The notes under the pieces were generated by a model. It searched no databases, had not been told where the DNA came from, and saw only the letters and a list, made by a program, of their open reading frames with translations. From UHGV virus genome UHGV-0076264: a stretch of 29,064 bases of DNA; one strand, 5' to 3'. Position 1 is the stretch's first letter. Each line of letters starts with the position of its first letter. Of this stretch, positions 14,422-27,596 are shown piece after piece. The position numbers and the translations under genes were made by a program. Origin of the DNA: a virus.

Positions 14422-14525
14422 TGCCTGTCAATTTTTATCAACAGGTGTTTTTCATAACGCAATGTTTTATAATGAATTACTTGTTTTAAGAGTAGATTTT
14501 TAAAGGGGTAAAAATATAATAACGT

Positions 14526-14574
14526 CGCATTCGTAATGCGAAGGTCGTAGGTTCGACTCCTATTATCGGCACCA
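14526..14574 (+). repeat. Attachment-site copy: 3-prime 49 nt of tRNA-Thr(CGU) (thrW), not a complete tRNA gene
   Basis: Anticodon stem-loop CGCATTCGTAATGCG (anticodon CGT), T-arm GGTTCGACTCC and acceptor 3-prime strand TATTATCGGCACCA are present; the D-arm and 5-prime acceptor strand GCCGATA are absent upstream. Confidence 0.8.
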
Positions 14575-14588
14575 TTTAAATCAATAAG

Positions 14589-15752
14589 TTACACATCATT
14601 AGTACCTTTCTTATTTTTTGACTGGGACAAATTTGGGACCGATGGGTTCAGGATCGAGTCTATTTGCCGTGCGTGTTCGGTAAGGTGATTAGGTGCAAGG
14701 TGAGCATATCGACGAACCATTTCGATAGACTCCCAGCCTCCCATTTCCTGTAACACTGACAACGGGACTCCGGCTTGAACCAGCCAACTTGCCCAGGTGT
14801 GTCTCAAGTCGTGAAATCTGAAATCATCAATACCAGCCCGTCTCAGAGCCGCTTTCCAGGCTGTGTTTGCGTCATACCGCATCTTCCTTACTGTTGGCGC
14901 TTTCGTTCCGTCTGGTTTGGTACAGCTTTCCTTGTACACAAATACCCAACGGTGATGATTACCGATTTGTTTTTTCAATACGCGACATGCAGTATCATTC
15001 AGCGCAACGCCAATTGCGCGGTTTGATTTACTCTCTTCCGGGTTTATCCATGCCACCCGGCGCTGCATATCTATTTGTTGCCATTCAAGGTTGATGATGT
15101 TCGAGCGTCTTAAGCCTGTTGCCAGTGCAAATTCAACAACAGACTTTAATGGCTCCGGACATTCATCAATCAGCCTTTGTGCTTCATGGGGCTCCAGCCA
15201 GCGGATCCGTTTATTCTTTGGTTGAGGCACTTTAATAATTGGTGCCTTATCCAGCATTTTCCATTCACGCTCTGCGGCTCTTAGCAGGGCCTTTATAAAT
15301 GAAAGATGCGTAGCCTTCGTTGCAACGGACGCTGGTTTTGGCGTGTATTCTGGAACAGGTTTCCCTTTTTTTCTGCATGCTTCTGCCCTGAGTTTCCAGT
15401 TTTCCTCATGACGCCGGTTCGTCATTTTCTGCATTGCTGAATAAATTTTTGATTCAGTAATGTCTCTTAGTTGCATTCCTGCGAAATGTTGAAGCCAGAA
15501 TCCGATCCGGCTTTTGTCATCGTCCAGTGATTTTTTATGTGCTTTCTCTTCAAGCCACCTGACACACGCTTCCTCGAACGTTATATCAGGTATTTCACCA
15601 AGTTTGCTGACCCGCCATGCTTCAGCCTTTAGCTTGTCATGGAGTTCTGTCGCCTGCCTTTTGTCCTTTGTTCCAAGAGACTGTTTAAATCTTTTACCGT
15701 TCGGCAATGTGAAACTGGCGTACCATATTTCACCTCTGCGGAAGAGTGACAT
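14589..15752 (-). CDS. int: Phage P22-type tyrosine integrase, 387 aa
   Basis: Near-identical over its length to my recollection of P22 Int ([52 protein letters not shown]...); P22 integrates at thrW, matching the adjacent att. Confidence 0.9.
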
Positions 15753-23518: not shown

Positions 23519-23585
23519 TGAAACAGGTGAGTTGAGTTCAAACTGTAGTACAATTCTCTCCAGTTTGAACAGGAAAGAATATTCT

Positions 23586-23918
23586 ATGAACCCTTATATT
23601 TATCTTGGTGGTGCAATACTTGCAGAGGTCATTGGTACAACCTTAATGAAGTTTTCAGAAGGTTTTACACGGTTATGGCCATCTGTTGGTACAATTATTT
23701 GTTATTGTGCATCATTCTGGTTATTAGCTCAGACGCTGGCTTATATTCCTACAGGGATTGCTTATGCTATCTGGTCAGGAGTCGGTATTGTCCTGATTAG
23801 CTTACTGTCATGGGGACTTTTCGGCCAACGGCTGGACCTGCCAGCCATTATAGGCATGATGTTGATTTGTGCCGGTGTGTTGGTTATTAATTTATTGTCA
23901 CGAAGCACACCACATTAA
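23586..23918 (+). CDS. emrE: Small multidrug resistance efflux protein EmrE, 110 aa
   Basis: MNPYIYLGGAILAEVIGTTLMKFSEGFTRLW... is essentially E. coli EmrE; the ORF-track start at 23532 is a spurious TTG extension. Confidence 0.9.
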   Translation: MNPYIYLGGAILAEVIGTTLMKFSEGFTRLWPSVGTIICYCASFWLLAQTLAYIPTGIAYAIWSGVGIVLISLLSWGLFGQRLDLPAIIGMMLICAGVLVINLLSRSTPH

Positions 23919-23948
23919 AAATAATTTGTTTCTAAACGACTAAAATAT

Positions 23949-23989
23949 GGAGGCTCTTATATTTATATGAGCCTCGTTTTATGCTTTTT
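23949..23989 (+). terminator. Intrinsic terminator after emrE
   Basis: Stem GAGGCTC/GAGCCTC (23950-23956 / 23969-23975) followed by GTTTTATGCTTTTTG. Confidence 0.6.
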
Positions 23990-24173
23990 GTTAATGTCTT
24001 TATTTTTTTATGTATTCTTTTGTGCTTTCAAGATTATGGCGTAAGAAAATTGCAATACGATTATTGTTGTATATTCAAGATAATGTGACCTTAATTGTCT
24101 TTTTAAATAAAAATTAAACAAAATTATATCCCACCACTAAGGTTTATAAAAGCATACGTTAGCAGGTGTCACC

Positions 24174-25700
24174 ATGAAAAAAGCCATAGCATATATGCGA
24201 TTTTCATCACCAGGTCAGATGTCTGGCGACTCATTAAACCGACAGAGAAGACTTATTGCTGAATGGTTAAAGGTAAATAGTGATTATTATCTTGATACCA
24301 TAACATATGAAGATTTAGGATTAAGTGCATTCAAAGGAAAGCATGCACAATCAGGAGCTTTTTCGGAATTTTTAGATGCTATAGAGCATGGTTATATATT
24401 GCCAGGAACTACATTGTTAGTTGAAAGTCTGGACAGACTTTCAAGAGAAAAAGTCGGTGAAGCGATTGAACGTCTGAAATTGATTTTGAATCACGGTATT
24501 GATGTTATAACTCTTTGCGACAATACAGTCTATAATATTGACTCTTTGAATGAGCCATATTCATTAATAAAAGCCATACTTATAGCACAAAGGGCAAATG
24601 AAGAAAGCGAGATAAAGTCAAGTCGGGTTAAATTATCATGGAAGAAAAAACGGCAGGATGCACTGGAATCAGGTACGATTATGACGGCGTCTTGTCCGAG
24701 ATGGCTCTCCTTAGATGACAAAAGAACGGCTTTTGTTCCAGACCCCGACAGGGTGAAAACTATTGAGCTAATTTTTAAACTCAGGATGGAAAGGCGCTCA
24801 TTGAATGCAATAGCCAAGTATTTAAATGATCATGCTGTAAAGAATTTCTCAGGAAAAGAAAGTGCATGGGGACCTTCTGTAATTGAAAAATTATTAGCGA
24901 ATAAAGCTCTGATAGGTATATGCGTACCTTCATATCGTGCAAGAGGTAAAGGAATAAGTGAAATCGCTGGCTATTATCCCAGAGTCATATCAGATGATTT
25001 GTTTTACGCTGTACAGGAAATTCGGTTGGCACCTTTTGGTATTAGCAATAGTAGCAAAAATCCTATGTTGATAAATCTACTTCGAACAGTTATGAAGTGC
25101 GAGGCTTGTGGTAATACCATGATTGTTCATGCGGTATCTAGAAGTTTGCATGGCTATTATGTTTGTCCGATGAGAAGACTGCATCGATGTGACAGGCCAT
25201 CAATAAAGAGAGATTTGGTTGATTATAATATCATTAATGAGTTGCTTTTTAATTGTAGTAAAATCCAACCAGTTGAAAACAAGAAAGATGCTAATGAAAC
25301 TTTAGAGTTGAAAATTATTGAGCTCCAGATGAAAATTAATAATTTAATTGCTGCATTATCTGTTGCGCCTGAAGTTACCGCTATAGCAGAAAAAATCAGA
25401 GTATTAGATAAGGAATTACGAAGGGCTTCTGTATCATTAAAAACTTTGAAGAGTAAAGCGGTGAGTTCACTTGGTGATTTTCATGCTATTGACTTAACCA
25501 GTAAAAATGGGCGAGAGCTATGTCGTACACTTGCCTATAAAACATTCGAAAAAATCATAATCAATACAGATAATAAAACCTGTGATATCTATTTTATGAA
25601 TGGCATTGTTTTTAAACACTATCCTTTAATGAAAACAATATCCGCCCAGCAGGCGATAAGTACTCTCAAATATATGGTTGATGGTGAGGTTTATTTTTGA
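24174..25700 (+). CDS. Large serine recombinase (YbcK-like), 508 aa
   Basis: N-terminal resolvase catalytic motif AIAYMRFSSPGQ, Cys-rich zinc-ribbon-like region and C-terminal coiled coil. Confidence 0.8.
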   Translation: MKKAIAYMRFSSPGQMSGDSLNRQRRLIAEWLKVNSDYYLDTITYEDLGLSAFKGKHAQSGAFSEFLDAIEHGYILPGTTLLVESLDRLSREKVGEAIERLKLILNHGIDVITLCDNTVYNIDSLNEPYSLIKAILIAQRANEESEIKSSRVKLSWKKKRQDALESGTIMTASCPRWLSLDDKRTAFVPDPDRVKTIELIFKLRMERRSLNAIAKYLNDHAVKNFSGKESAWGPSVIEKLLANKALIGICVPSYRARGKGISEIAGYYPRVISDDLFYAVQEIRLAPFGISNSSKNPMLINLLRTVMKCEACGNTMIVHAVSRSLHGYYVCPMRRLHRCDRPSIKRDLVDYNIINELLFNCSKIQPVENKKDANETLELKIIELQMKINNLIAALSVAPEVTAIAEKIRVLDKELRRASVSLKTLKSKAVSSLGDFHAIDLTSKNGRELCRTLAYKTFEKIIINTDNKTCDIYFMNGIVFKHYPLMKTISAQQAISTLKYMVDGEVYF

Positions 25701-25811
25701 GTAATAATCACTTTTTCAACCGTGCTATAGTAAGAAAGTTAGGTAAGTACATTAAAATTATCTATCCTGAACGAAGCGTCCTGAGCTATGGTTTTACTAT
25801 AGAGACTGCCA

Positions 25812-26135
25812 ATGGATGCTGGCGTTCTCGTTCTAGCAGTTCAACAATACCCAATCACAAAACAATTCACTGATAACGAACTTTGCACACTCGCCTGGTT
25901 ATGGCGAGCAGGGAATGTGATGTTAATTACCTACCAGAACGTTACTCCTCTTCTTCAGGTTGCGGAGCATCGTGAAGCTGGTCGCTTCACTTCTATCGAG
26001 CAAGAATATCCCCAGATACTCAATAAGGCACAGGCAATCCTTGCCAGAGAAACGGCACATGTAAAATTCCGGCCGTGGCAGGATGATAAGTGGAGTCGAG
26101 TTTTGCCGCATTTACGTTCGGATCGATTACAGTAG
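25812..26135 (+). CDS. Hypothetical protein, 107 aa
   Basis: ORF only; no recognisable motif. Confidence 0.3.
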   Translation: MDAGVLVLAVQQYPITKQFTDNELCTLAWLWRAGNVMLITYQNVTPLLQVAEHREAGRFTSIEQEYPQILNKAQAILARETAHVKFRPWQDDKWSRVLPHLRSDRLQ

Positions 26136-26596
26136 ATTCCAATTAACAATGAGAAACACATAGCCACCCCGTGGTATTGAAACCATATAATGTTGGATTT
26201 GAAAACAGATCTTTTTCCATGTATTAATAACTACATCCCCGCGAGTGATTCAAAAAGGAGGGCCCAATTTTGTCCGAGTTTTTGTATTCCCCCGCATGCC
26301 GCTGCGGAGCACTACATCTGAGTGTCTGACTAGGGGATAAAATTAGACTGGATAGTGAGAAGAAAGTGGCGTGCTAGGCTGTGCCGAGTGCTACCAGTAC
26401 ACCCTGGGGGTGTGCAGCTTTCGCCGAGACTGTAGTGGGTATCGGTTAATGCACGAAAAACCGAGAGGTCAGACAACCAATTTGCCGTAGGATTGTTTCC
26501 GGTGCGATACCGGTGTACTAACTGAAAGCAATGCGAAAAAGCATAAACTCGGTCCTTCAGTCGCCCTACACACTATTTACTAAGAAGGGCTAAAGC

Positions 26597-26953
26597 ATGG
26601 ATACAATTATCACATGGATGGGAGATCGTCTGTTGGGGTGGATAACAAACAAATCCGATCTGCGGCAGAGGGCAATCACTGGATTAACTCCTGCGATTTA
26701 TTCAACAATTTTATATACTGAAAAATTAAAACGTGGTGAGCCTAATAACCCAAACGAAGAAGAAAAACTTTATAGGCTTTGGTATGAAGCGTCTTCCCAA
26801 GTCGTAGACTTTGATCGAGAGCTGGCTAAAAGATGTTTAGATAAATCAGAATATTGGCTTCATTCTGAATTATATAGCCCTGAGAAAGTTGGAGAGCTAA
26901 ACATTTCTTTGGTTGGTATGAAGGCAACGCTTGAAGGAATAAAGCACAATTAA
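26597..26953 (+). CDS. Hypothetical protein, 118 aa, AT-rich
   Basis: ORF with AAGAAGGG RBS-like sequence upstream; no recognisable motif. Confidence 0.4.
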   Translation: MDTIITWMGDRLLGWITNKSDLRQRAITGLTPAIYSTILYTEKLKRGEPNNPNEEEKLYRLWYEASSQVVDFDRELAKRCLDKSEYWLHSELYSPEKVGELNISLVGMKATLEGIKHN

Positions 26954-27140
26954 AACCTTTGATTTGCGATAATCAACTCGCCATAATCATGTCATCGGAG
27001 CCTGAACAACTCCGGTGACTTCTGCGCTAAACGGGGACGTTTATGCGCACACACAATCCAAACTCTCTTCTCCCTCCACAGATGCAGAAATGCACCTGCG
27101 ATATATTGTATCCAGCGTTTGACCTCTGCGGAGGTGAAGC

Positions 27141-27596
27141 GTGAATCTCCCACAAGATGGCATCAAATTACATCGCGGTAACTTCACCGCTATCGGTCGG
27201 CAGATCCAGCCTTATCTGGAGGAGGGCAAATGCTTTCGCATGGTGCTTAAACCGTGGCGTGAGAAACGCAGTCTTTCCCAGAATGCACTCAGCCACATGT
27301 GGTACAGCGAAATCAGTGAATACCTCATCAGCAGGGGTAAAACGTTCGCTACTCCAGCTTGGGTAAAAGATGCTCTCAAACACACATATCTCGGTTATGA
27401 AACCAAAGACCTGGTTGATGTTGTAACCGGTGATATCACCACTATCCAGTCGTTACGCCATACCTCCGATCTTGATACCGGAGAGATGTATGTCTTCCTG
27501 TGTAAGGTTGAAGCCTGGGCGGTGAATATTGGCTGCCACCTGACTATTCCGCAGAGCTGCGAGTTCCAGCTGCTCCGCGACAAGCAGGAGGCGTAA
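27141..27596 (+). CDS. NinB/Orf-family recombination protein (YbcN-like), 151 aa, GTG start
   Basis: NinB-like motif [12 protein letters not shown]; gene order before ninE as in lambdoid nin regions. Confidence 0.75.

Follow-up and report, generated by a model that had tools for sequence, protein, structure and literature searches.

Gene content around the ORF-free segment

The window (the whole stretch of DNA that was analysed, 29,064 nucleotides) is a DLP12-like lambdoid prophage of E. coli. Beyond its O, P and ren genes lie two ORFs separated by a segment (26136-26596) that contains only mechanical ORFs of 31-48 amino acids, a layout that had been noticed in an initial annotation made from the sequence alone and that our ORF map bears out. 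The features of this region, all on the + strand, are:

25812-26135, + strand, 107-aa ORF (ORF map and match to Pfam P22_AR_C)
26199-26228, + strand, candidate sigma-70-like promoter (-35 TTGAAA at 26199-26204, 18-nt spacer, -10 ATTAAT at 26223-26228)
26235-26562, + strand, conserved RNA core of about 328 nt, inside the ORF-free segment
26563-26596, + strand, 34-nt junction with the ribosome-binding site of the 118-aa ORF, at the usual terminator site (3'-tail alignments and folds)
26597-26953, + strand, 118-aa ORF (ORF map; PHROG 12412)
26959-27144, + strand, resumed conserved backbone, with a promoter-like TTGATT-N17-CATAAT (26959-26987) and a 33-aa ORF (27043-27144)

The segment had been described as richer in GC than its surroundings, which is true relative to the 118-aa ORF and the recombinase gene (0.35-0.40 and 0.30-0.39, respectively, versus 0.47-0.52 across 26200-26599) but not relative to the 107-aa ORF (0.44-0.49) or the nin backbone (about 0.5), which are as GC-rich as the segment itself. 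On the right, the 33-aa ORF immediately precedes ybcN, the ninB-like gene, and in Klebsiella phage L002 the promoter-like TTGATT-N17-CATAAT site likewise follows the cargo gene; 2950 E. coli records match part of the region only, mostly because of this backbone stretch. Elsewhere in the window, a partial tRNA at 14507-14563 is the sole Rfam match at the gathering threshold.

Only one of the two ORFs that were originally listed as unknown remains so. The 107-aa ORF matches Pfam P22_AR_C (E = 1e-15) as well as PHROG Ant families, and a homologue at the same position in another lineage (L027) is a full-length, 202-aa version with both Bro-N and P22_AR_C domains. Since the window copy has P22_AR_C alone, without Bro-N, it is by its domain content the 3' remnant of a 5'-truncated Bro-N/P22AR antirepressor-like gene, and lies outside the RNA module described below. 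The 118-aa ORF has no named family: PADLOC, Pfam and NCBIfam give none for it or for five other cargo proteins, and its PHROG matches are only to families of unknown function. Its AlphaFold2 model is a four-helix bundle, for which Foldseek finds nothing significant in PDB or BFVD.

Occurrence and conservation of the RNA element

The RNA core (about 330 nt) recurs at about 100 loci with 77-100% identity. Of 5426 complete E. coli genomes, 159 (about 3%) carry it, in one copy each and annotated in none, and the other 97% are without it. It is also carried by isolated Escherichia and Klebsiella phages (Turner, IdasGreatGrand and Klebsiella phage Kp4856-1), and by contigs of Enterobacter bugandensis, Obesumbacterium proteus and Citrobacter braakii. 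The family is narrow, as every copy is at least 77% identical and all are from the Enterobacterales. Pattern scans of viral, genome and metagenome sequences for more distant homologues recovered only the same narrow family and chance matches (loci L054, L071-L074, L076, L078, L085 and L112-L119 are among the sequences returned by these scans).

The initial annotation could not assign the segment to a family, and the same is true of a direct check against Rfam 15, in which no family reaches the gathering threshold; relaxing the cut-off to E <= 10 for the window copy and for two diverged ones, L010 and L002, adds nothing but noise and terminator-like matches. Literature searches (full text, supplement and the Pas-sRNA preprint) turned up no description of the element; the Pas sRNAs of that preprint are located near lysis genes, unlike the RNA element. 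It is a previously unclassified structured RNA that matches no catalogued family.

Consensus fold

We modelled the fold by comparing 34 distinct copies (RNAalifold consensus and pair counts). The comparison supports a two-domain fold of 93 base pairs in 17 helices, in which 96.4% of cells are paired (33-46% when the partners are slid) and 23 pairs show two-sided changes (2-9 in the slid controls), although the copies are mosaic recombinants and the independent compensatory events are therefore far fewer than such cell counts suggest. None of 500 shuffles matches the observed percentage paired or the covariation score. Taken alone, the window sequence is no more stably folded than its shuffled versions (z of -0.66 for the + strand, -0.74 for the - strand), so the case for structure rests on the comparison of homologues. 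The main elements of the model are:

26235-26338, + strand, RNA domain 1; P1 (26235-26240/26333-26338) encloses the P2-P3-P4 arm and the P5 hairpin
26346-26562, + strand, RNA domain 2; P6 (26346-26351/26557-26562) encloses P7-P10, P11 and P12-P17
26397-26415, + strand, P10 hairpin, containing ACACCC-TGG-GGGTGT (26399-26413)
26324-26330, + strand, pseudoknot 5' strand GUCUGAC, partner 26468-26474
26468-26474, + strand, pseudoknot 3' strand GUCAGAC, partner 26324-26330

Domain 1 is a three-way junction that carries an invariant GGAGG (26257-26261) and a UUG (at 26270), and variation in its helices P3 and P5 consists mainly of G-U changes. Domain 2 is a multi-helix structure with double-sided changes in P7, P8, P10, P11, P12 and P16. 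Its P10 contains the hairpin that the initial annotation had given as an example, at exactly 26399-26413: five of its eight pairs are altered on both sides somewhere in the family, the most divergent copy has three to four compensatory changes, and at this position the Citrobacter copy L120 has AAAGCAC-UGG-GUGCUUU. P17 is a hairpin with a short stem and a six-nucleotide loop (AUGC-GAAAAA-GCAU). The junctions and some loops are nearly invariant, and helices are swapped as whole compensating alleles.

The two domains are linked by a 7-bp pseudoknot whose pairing holds in all 34 sequences. Its covariation comes from one sequence only, L120, in which a C-to-U change on the 5' strand (at C26330) is matched by a G-to-A change on the partner (at G26468), turning C-G into U-A; the same change breaks a local hairpin, P13, which was dropped from the model in favour of the pseudoknot. 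Other candidate pairings fared less well. An 11-nt complementarity between the invariant blocks 26274-84 and 26542-52 is broken by a G-to-C change in three lineages, and P3/P4 and P12 are preferred there; for a pairing of the P5 loop with J6/7 (CACUA with UAGUG), the partner column changes without compensation. The complementary 8-mers pointed out at the start do exist (AGTACACC at 26396-26403, one base from where they had been placed, and GGTGTACT at 26512-26519), but they are specific to the lineage and not conserved.

The strand of the RNA can be read from the alignment, which has 305 G-U cells and only 3 A-C cells; this excess, together with intrinsic terminators that lie downstream on the + strand (with stem sequences that differ between lineages), assigns the RNA to the + strand. 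The alifold energy is -75.0 kcal/mol for the + strand and -52.6 kcal/mol for the - strand. The original suggestion of a structured RNA is thus upheld by covariation, strand asymmetry, the lack of a coding signal and the terminators found downstream in other lineages.

Flanking genes, promoter-like sequences and terminators

Across lineages, the genes before the RNA are of at least four unrelated kinds and those after it of at least six different ones; with neighbours that differ on both sides, the RNA is by this comparison an autonomous module. Its setting is constant in other respects: its direction is invariably that of the early-right operon, and the order is always replication genes, RNA, nin/Q genes. 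In the window it adjoins the serine recombinase gene at a mosaic junction and forms one boundary of a variable slot. The cargo genes that follow it are small, unannotated and often encode membrane proteins; in one lineage (L010) there is no cargo gene and a backbone DUF1367 (nin) gene alone lies downstream. The idea of a combined RNA-protein element is right insofar as the RNA lies directly upstream of every examined 118-aa homologue of at least 69% identity, with no terminator between them, but elsewhere the RNA is followed by at least five other genes or by no cargo at all. The possibility of a defence function finds no echo in PADLOC, which detects nothing among the cargo proteins. The Klebsiella-phage cargo protein has an invariant R-x4-H and a predicted model with a pLDDT of 87; a HEPN identity was considered for it but is not supported, as there is no significant match to HEPN or any other fold and no PDB sequence match.

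The putative promoter ends 6 nt upstream of P1, the first helix, and would start transcription at A26235. Its TTG and TTwAAT motifs are conserved among 25-29 distinct upstream sequences and always lie 17 nt apart (18 nt in the window lineage), although the spacer sequences vary. A strict consensus scan does not call the site, because its -10 hexamer has no A at position 2. At the other end, most lineages have an intrinsic terminator 12-15 nt past the last helix, and a gene that starts 25-45 nt past the terminator, too close to have a promoter of its own. The window lineage has no terminator; the 118-aa ORF follows the RNA directly and likewise has no room for its own promoter. This order of promoter, RNA, terminator and gene fits a cis-acting leader as well as it does a stand-alone RNA. 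Short Logan contigs that include the 118-aa gene were considered as possible transcripts and set aside; they begin 140-240 nt upstream of the predicted start and so are uninformative about the 5' end.

Interpretation

We think it probable, taking the evidence as a whole, that the element is an autonomous + strand structured-RNA unit that acts as a folded RNA. It would be a "moron"-type cassette of lambdoid phages, transcribed from its own weak sigma-70-like promoter with a start at the first base of P1, and in most lineages ending at the intrinsic terminator to give an RNA of about 375 nt. Such an RNA could be made in the lysogen and could also be read through from pR during lytic growth. The pseudoknot (26324-30/26468-74) would lock the two domains together, and the folded RNA most likely binds a host or phage factor rather than serving as an antisense regulator. 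A search for antisense targets inside the window gave only chance-level 12-mers. In the window, where the terminator appears to have been replaced, the RNA would form a 362-nt leader on the mRNA of the 118-aa four-helix protein, which would therefore be obligatorily co-transcribed with it.

A different reading, possible but doubtful in our view, is that the RNA is a cis-acting leader, riboswitch- or attenuator-like, that gates read-through of the terminator into the following gene; in the window it would instead control translation or stability of the 118-aa mRNA, and in general the RNA would be the sensor and the downstream genes its outputs. The recurrent promoter-RNA-terminator-gene order with its short distance from terminator to start codon argues for this, as do the constant direct joining of the 118-aa gene to the RNA without a terminator and the small, unannotated, often membrane-bound nature of the downstream products, as accessory or toxic cargo often is. 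In addition, GGAGG-N8-UUG heads a 19-codon frame whose stop codon falls inside a pseudoknot strand, so that its translation could remodel the fold, but this frame has no codon-position bias and contains a premature stop in one lineage. Against a leader, too, no common family or function unites the downstream genes (at least six unrelated families), in L010 their place is taken by a lone backbone nin gene, manual inspection found no antiterminator pairing that changes along with the different terminator stems, and known attenuators make do with far less than about 330 nt and 17 helices. An extension of this idea that we hold to be unlikely makes the RNA a sensor and gate of a new functional class, or a new ribozyme or RNA decoy in phage-host conflict. 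A pseudoknotted RNA expressed by the prophage would then answer infection, ribosome engagement at GGAGG/UUG or a small molecule by controlling read-through into swappable small effectors (membrane proteins, the 118-aa bundle and others), and such a conserved sensor with interchangeable effectors would resemble the modular logic of protein defence systems.

It is quite unlikely that the element acts only within the long early-right (pR) transcript, either as a put- or nut-like site that modifies RNA polymerase or Rho at a tR2-equivalent terminator before the nin/Q genes or as a processed 3'-UTR-like product. The constant early-right orientation and position and the terminator that usually comes right after the RNA would suit such a role, and the short stem and GAAAAA loop of P17 resemble boxB. 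However, inspection finds no boxA-like sequence beside P17, the conserved promoter-like hexamers end just ahead of P1, and the element is missing from nearly all E. coli genomes; since most lambdoid phages are without it, it is not a core regulatory site.

We find it very improbable that the segment is the decayed remnant of a protein gene, or that it encodes a small protein, whether from the 19-codon frame or from the 31-48-aa ORFs. Such ORFs are present (two were called by the annotators of phage Turner), a GGAGG-N8-UUG stands before the 19-codon frame, and in some copies a single minus-strand frame runs for 115 codons without a stop, but the variable columns are spread evenly over codon positions (52/51/45; p = 0.75) and show no three-base periodicity. 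Every reading frame has stops in most sequences and none is stop-free across the family; the single frame that a few copies keep open is interrupted by up to five stops in others. Moreover, long blocks do not vary even where a change would be synonymous, and variation is concentrated in compensating helix arms. The element is therefore non-coding on comparative grounds, and the initial worry that it might be a decayed fragment of a protein gene or lack conservation has not materialized. We give hardly any credence to the idea of a site in the DNA itself, whether for recombination, replication or protein binding, which the mosaic junction beside the recombinase gene and the boundary of the variable slot might suggest, as other lineages have no adjacent recombinase, the strand-specific G-U excess is expected of RNA and not of duplex or cruciform DNA, and Tandem Repeats Finder (minimum score 30) and a repeat search on the RNA returned no rows and no repeat array.

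Comparison with known systems

The autonomous unit that we favour resembles the phage "morons" in being a cassette that carries promoter-like and terminator signals of its own, has a patchy distribution and is located in the known variable region between replication and nin genes. It differs from them in that its product would be no protein but a large folded RNA, and in that the window copy has no terminator and has a protein gene fused to the RNA. The ROOL and GOLLD RNAs are likewise phage-borne, several hundred nucleotides long, rich in helices, highly conserved at their junctions and without an obligatory protein partner nearby. Their Rfam models do not pick up the present element, however, not even at E <= 10. 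At about 330 nt it is also the smaller RNA, its range is restricted to Enterobacterales lambdoid phages, and it lies in the early-right operon and not beside tRNA genes.

Type III toxin-antitoxin systems (ToxIN-like) share with it the order of promoter, structured RNA, read-through-limiting terminator and small protein gene, and the location in mobile elements. Their antitoxin RNAs (ToxIN/CptIN/TenpIN) are tandem direct repeats, and we rejected this identity because the RNA has no tandem repeats; in addition, none of the proteins encoded downstream (at least six unrelated families, no PADLOC model) matches a ToxN/AbiQ-type endoribonuclease toxin, and the RNA is also found without a cargo gene. 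As for the terminator that separates RNA and toxin gene in such systems, most lineages have one at the corresponding place, but the window lineage and all others with the 118-aa gene do not.

The HK022 put RNAs are about 70 nt long and lie just downstream of the early promoters. Like lambda nut they are on lambdoid early transcripts near terminators, but put and nut are about 70 and 15 nt, respectively, as against 330 nt, and sit just after pL/pR, whereas the element lies after O/P/ren. Lambda nut is composed of boxA followed by a boxB hairpin, and put of two stem-loops; inspection against the consensus sequences reveals no boxA near P17 of the element, which is found in about 3% of E. coli genomes. 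Finally, retron msr-msd and DRT-associated ncRNAs need an adjacent reverse transcriptase, and RefSeq annotation and neighbourhood ORF maps reveal none near the RNA in any lineage.

Significance

E. coli and its lambdoid phages are the genomes most thoroughly mined for non-coding RNA, yet this element is unannotated and not in Rfam. Nearly invariant junctions combined with freely exchanged helices are what is seen in RNAs whose function makes high demands on tertiary structure, among them ribozymes, riboswitches and RNAs that bind proteins or ribosomes. If it were only a stable by-product RNA, the gain would be no more than one new family for Rfam and improved annotation. The RNA is directly testable, because lysogens (for example strains MB56, EC93 and NCTC9699) and the plaque-forming phage Turner carry it. 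As it heads a variable slot for accessory genes, it may reveal how lambdoid prophages express or control their cargo, or point to a new RNA participant in conflicts of phages with their hosts or with one another.

Gene neighbourhood

The window is an E. coli lambdoid prophage that resembles DLP12, and the region of interest (25701-27140; a 107-aa ORF, an ORF-free segment and a 118-aa ORF, all lying where the initial annotation had placed them) is matched at 100% identity by chromosomal segments of several strains. The RefSeq gene order is as follows:

Start: replication genes O/P, a small hypothetical gene, emrE, ylcJ, ybcK (serine recombinase)
After ybcK: a 'P22AR C-terminal domain' protein, an unannotated gap, a hypothetical protein, a 33-aa protein
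End: ybcN, ninE, ybcO, rusA, ylcG, quuD

The isolated Escherichia phage Turner has the gene arrangement of the window, and there the small gene after O/P carries a Ren-like label. A partial tRNA match at 14507-14563 (Rfam, 29.7 bits, model positions 9-63; not called by ARAGORN) adjoins an integrase-sized ORF (14589-15752, - strand) and probably represents the 3' end of a tRNA gene, duplicated at the site of prophage attachment.

A conserved structured RNA

Comparison of homologues shows that the unannotated gap holds a conserved, non-coding, + strand RNA (core 26235-26562, about 330 nt) with a two-domain pseudoknotted fold, which behaves as a mobile module. Long invariant blocks alternate with blocks that have been exchanged wholesale between lineages. 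RNAalifold, given 32 distinct sequences, returned 81 pairs in 17 helices (P1 to P17); 98.7% of the alignment cells at these positions pair, versus 35–47% when the 3' partners are slid along the alignment, and both sides have changed in 13 pairs versus 0–5 in the slid controls. The final model (34 sequences; P16 and P10 extended, one local hairpin swapped for a pseudoknot) has 93 pairs, with 96.4% of cells paired (33–46% when slid) and both-side changes in 23 pairs (2–9 when slid); as the aligned copies are related and mosaic, these cell counts greatly overstate the number of independent events. In 500 shuffles the observed values of percentage paired, double-sided changes and covariation score were never reached. 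At least six distinct sequences fill P11 among the copies, all of which pair, and G-U cells outnumber A-C cells by 305 to 3. On the + strand the consensus fold has an energy of -75.0 kcal/mol, versus -52.6 on the - strand, and variable columns are spread evenly by position modulo three (52/51/45, p = 0.75).

The pairing, covariation, strand asymmetry and non-coding pattern thus bear out the initial annotation's suspicion of a structured RNA, but the local complementarity that it noticed is not in itself beyond chance, since the window sequence alone shows no folding advantage over shuffled sequence (z = -0.66 and -0.74). At GC 0.47–0.52 the gap exceeds the AT-rich genes for the recombinase and the 118-aa protein, as had been said of its surroundings in general, but the nin backbone and the 107-aa ORF are at least as GC-rich.

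Anatomy of the RNA

Predicted features of the RNA and its upstream region

26199-26204 and 26223-26228, + strand: candidate promoter, TTGAAA and ATTAAT (conserved hexamers at fixed spacing)
26235-26338, + strand: domain 1, P1 (AUCCCC with GGGGAU) around a long P2-P3-P4 arm and the P5 hairpin
26324-26330, + strand: pseudoknot 5' strand, GUCUGAC, between P5 and P1
26346-26562, + strand: domain 2, P6 around P7 to P10, P11, and P12 to P17
26468-26474, + strand: pseudoknot 3' strand, GUCAGAC, in domain 2, complementary to 26324-26330

Both pseudoknot strands are invariant in 33 of the 34 sequences. In the most divergent copy (L120, from Citrobacter) a C-to-U change is matched by G-to-A opposite and a further C-to-U gives a G-U pair, so that all seven pairs are kept; the alternative local hairpin has an A-C mismatch there. 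This covariation, which comes from one sequence, supports a pseudoknot that would tie domains 1 and 2 together. The hairpin previously picked out at 26399-26413 is exact and corresponds to P10, which in L120 reads AAAGCAC-UGG-GUGCUUU, with three to four compensating changes; the complementary 8-mers reported with it are present at slightly different coordinates (26396-26403 and 26512-26519).

An invariant GGAGG (26257-26261) is followed 8 nt further 3' by a UUG (26270) that begins a frame of 19 codons, MSEFLYSPACRCGALHLSV, with its UGA stop (26327-26329) within the pseudoknot 5' strand. This frame is preserved in most lineages, with substitutions by codon position of 5/5/4, and has a premature UGA in one E. 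coli lineage (L096, L016, L015 and others); it may be a switch that engages ribosomes, or it may have arisen by chance.

Flanking genes and cargo proteins

The position of the RNA is constant: replication genes on one side, nin/Q genes on the other. The genes upstream of it vary (a P22AR_C remnant, a VasI/TagO-like protein, a dATP/dGTP pyrophosphohydrolase (PF04447) or an uncharacterised family), as do those downstream (118-aa, 178-aa membrane, 176-aa all-helical, 177-aa or 95-aa proteins), and in one lineage the backbone DUF1367 gene follows directly. Since both sides differ, the RNA is not tied to a single protein partner but is an autonomous module. A promoter-like TTGATT-N17-CATAAT stands after the cargo gene, where the backbone resumes (window 26959-26987; 4964-4992 in L002, a Klebsiella phage copy); in both it is 5' of ylcH/ybcN-type genes, at the right-hand boundary of the variable slot.

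The 107-aa ORF, one of two first listed as unknown, is identifiable by matches to Pfam P22_AR_C (E = 1e-15) and PHROG Ant families. A homologous locus (L027) has in its place an intact 202-aa protein with Bro-N and P22_AR_C domains, so the 107-aa ORF is a 5'-truncated remnant of an antirepressor-like gene. Within 23532-26135 the emrE-ylcJ-ybcK block occupies the expected place of the 5' half of that gene (the Bro-N domain), and the remnant was created by insertion of this block or by a replacement.

The 118-aa ORF belongs to PHROG 12412, a family of only 21 sequence clusters, all from Enterobacterales, with no assigned function. AlphaFold2 models its product as a four-helix bundle (pLDDT 80), for which neither PDB nor BFVD gave a significant match, and the protein hit no family in Pfam, NCBIfam or PADLOC. 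The RNA is directly upstream in every examined homologue of at least 69% identity; a 51% homologue (L108) in a different context does not have it upstream. The 118-aa gene thus depends on the RNA in one sense, that of a fixed upstream association. In GB089-type E. coli (L004, L026, L096 and relatives) the gene is cut to 60–66 aa beside a structurally intact, 98% identical RNA, which therefore appears to be kept while the protein gene decays. Klebsiella and Citrobacter phages have behind the RNA a 176–183-aa cargo protein (L002 4416-4967; homologues P0022-P0036) with an invariant R-H-N-L-L-H-A-N-K-Y motif (R-x4-H, HEPN-like) and a confident all-helical model (pLDDT 87) with no significant PDB fold match.

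Transcription signals

In 25 distinct upstream sequences a TTG stands at a constant 17 nt (18 nt in the window lineage) from TTwAAT, and the -10 hexamer stops 6 nt short of P1, whose first base is a purine in all copies. Identity averages 0.84 across the -35 hexamer and 0.91 across the -10, against 0.65 for the spacer. A strict promoter scan of the window did not call the site, and the -10 is without the usual A at position 2, so we grade it a candidate promoter only. Two viral contigs (L090 and L058) have unrelated DNA upstream of the -10 and have lost the -35 (TGGCCA for TTGAAA), with the RNA unchanged.

In most lineages a terminator made of a GC-rich hairpin and T run, with at least three different stem sequences, lies 12–15 nt past P6; the sole weak Rfam matches of the Klebsiella copy coincide with it. 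The terminator is absent from the window lineage and from every lineage with the 118-aa gene, whose start is 29–34 nt past P6. The RNA probably forms its own moron-like transcription unit, with a predicted transcript of about 375 nt whose 5' end is at P1; in the window it would instead be a 362-nt leader of the 118-aa mRNA.

Distribution

The RNA is present in 159 of 5426 complete E. coli genomes, as a single copy with no annotated feature there; only 95 of these have the whole 1440-bp arrangement. Diverged copies (77–83% identity) occur in Klebsiella phage Kp4856-1 and E. coli 3426, pattern scans gave true copies on about 65 viral and 23 metagenome contigs, and more were found on contigs of Enterobacter bugandensis, Obesumbacterium proteus, Citrobacter braakii and others, which encode relatives of the downstream proteins. 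When one genome per species was scanned with a gapped pattern, only a chance match resulted, and two further viral scans added no copies; the family is thus sporadic and narrow, limited to lambdoid phages of Enterobacterales.

Relationship to known RNAs and possible function

The Rfam scan suggested by the initial annotation found no family match for the RNA, and full-text literature searches found no description of it. It is not a type III antitoxin, as it has neither repeats nor a ToxN-like partner; nor a retron or DRT RNA, as there is no reverse transcriptase gene nearby; nor a nut or put site, from which it differs in position, size and the absence of boxA. The prophage Pas sRNAs are sited elsewhere in the phage genome. 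Nearest in kind are ROOL and GOLLD, large prophage-borne RNAs with no assigned function, to neither of which it belongs; nearest in layout is the moron cassette. It appears to be an undescribed RNA class.

We consider it somewhat probable that the RNA is autonomous and trans-acting. Its near-invariant junctions and freely exchanged helices suggest a tertiary-structure-dependent, factor-binding function and not antisense pairing, and a search for complementary targets within the window gave only chance-level matches. The invariant GACUGGAUAGUG (26346-26357) has a perfect 12-nt complement within ybcN (27440-27451); chance alone predicts about 1.6 such 12-mers, and Klebsiella phage ybcN does not conserve the target. 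A leader acting in cis to control read-through into the gene behind it would fit the order promoter, RNA, terminator, gene, the short distances from terminator to start and the obligatory fusion of the 118-aa gene to the RNA, but the downstream genes are an incoherent set and inspection found no covarying antiterminator, and we regard this as unlikely. The RNA is oriented as the early-right operon, and a role only within the pR transcript is more doubtful still. A decayed protein gene, envisaged earlier, is highly improbable, as there is no codon periodicity and each reading frame is interrupted by stops in most copies; a DNA site is equally so.

The lineage that has lost the -35 hexamer offers a natural experiment on whether the RNA depends on the candidate promoter. 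A role in defence is a possibility, to which only the location of the RNA points.
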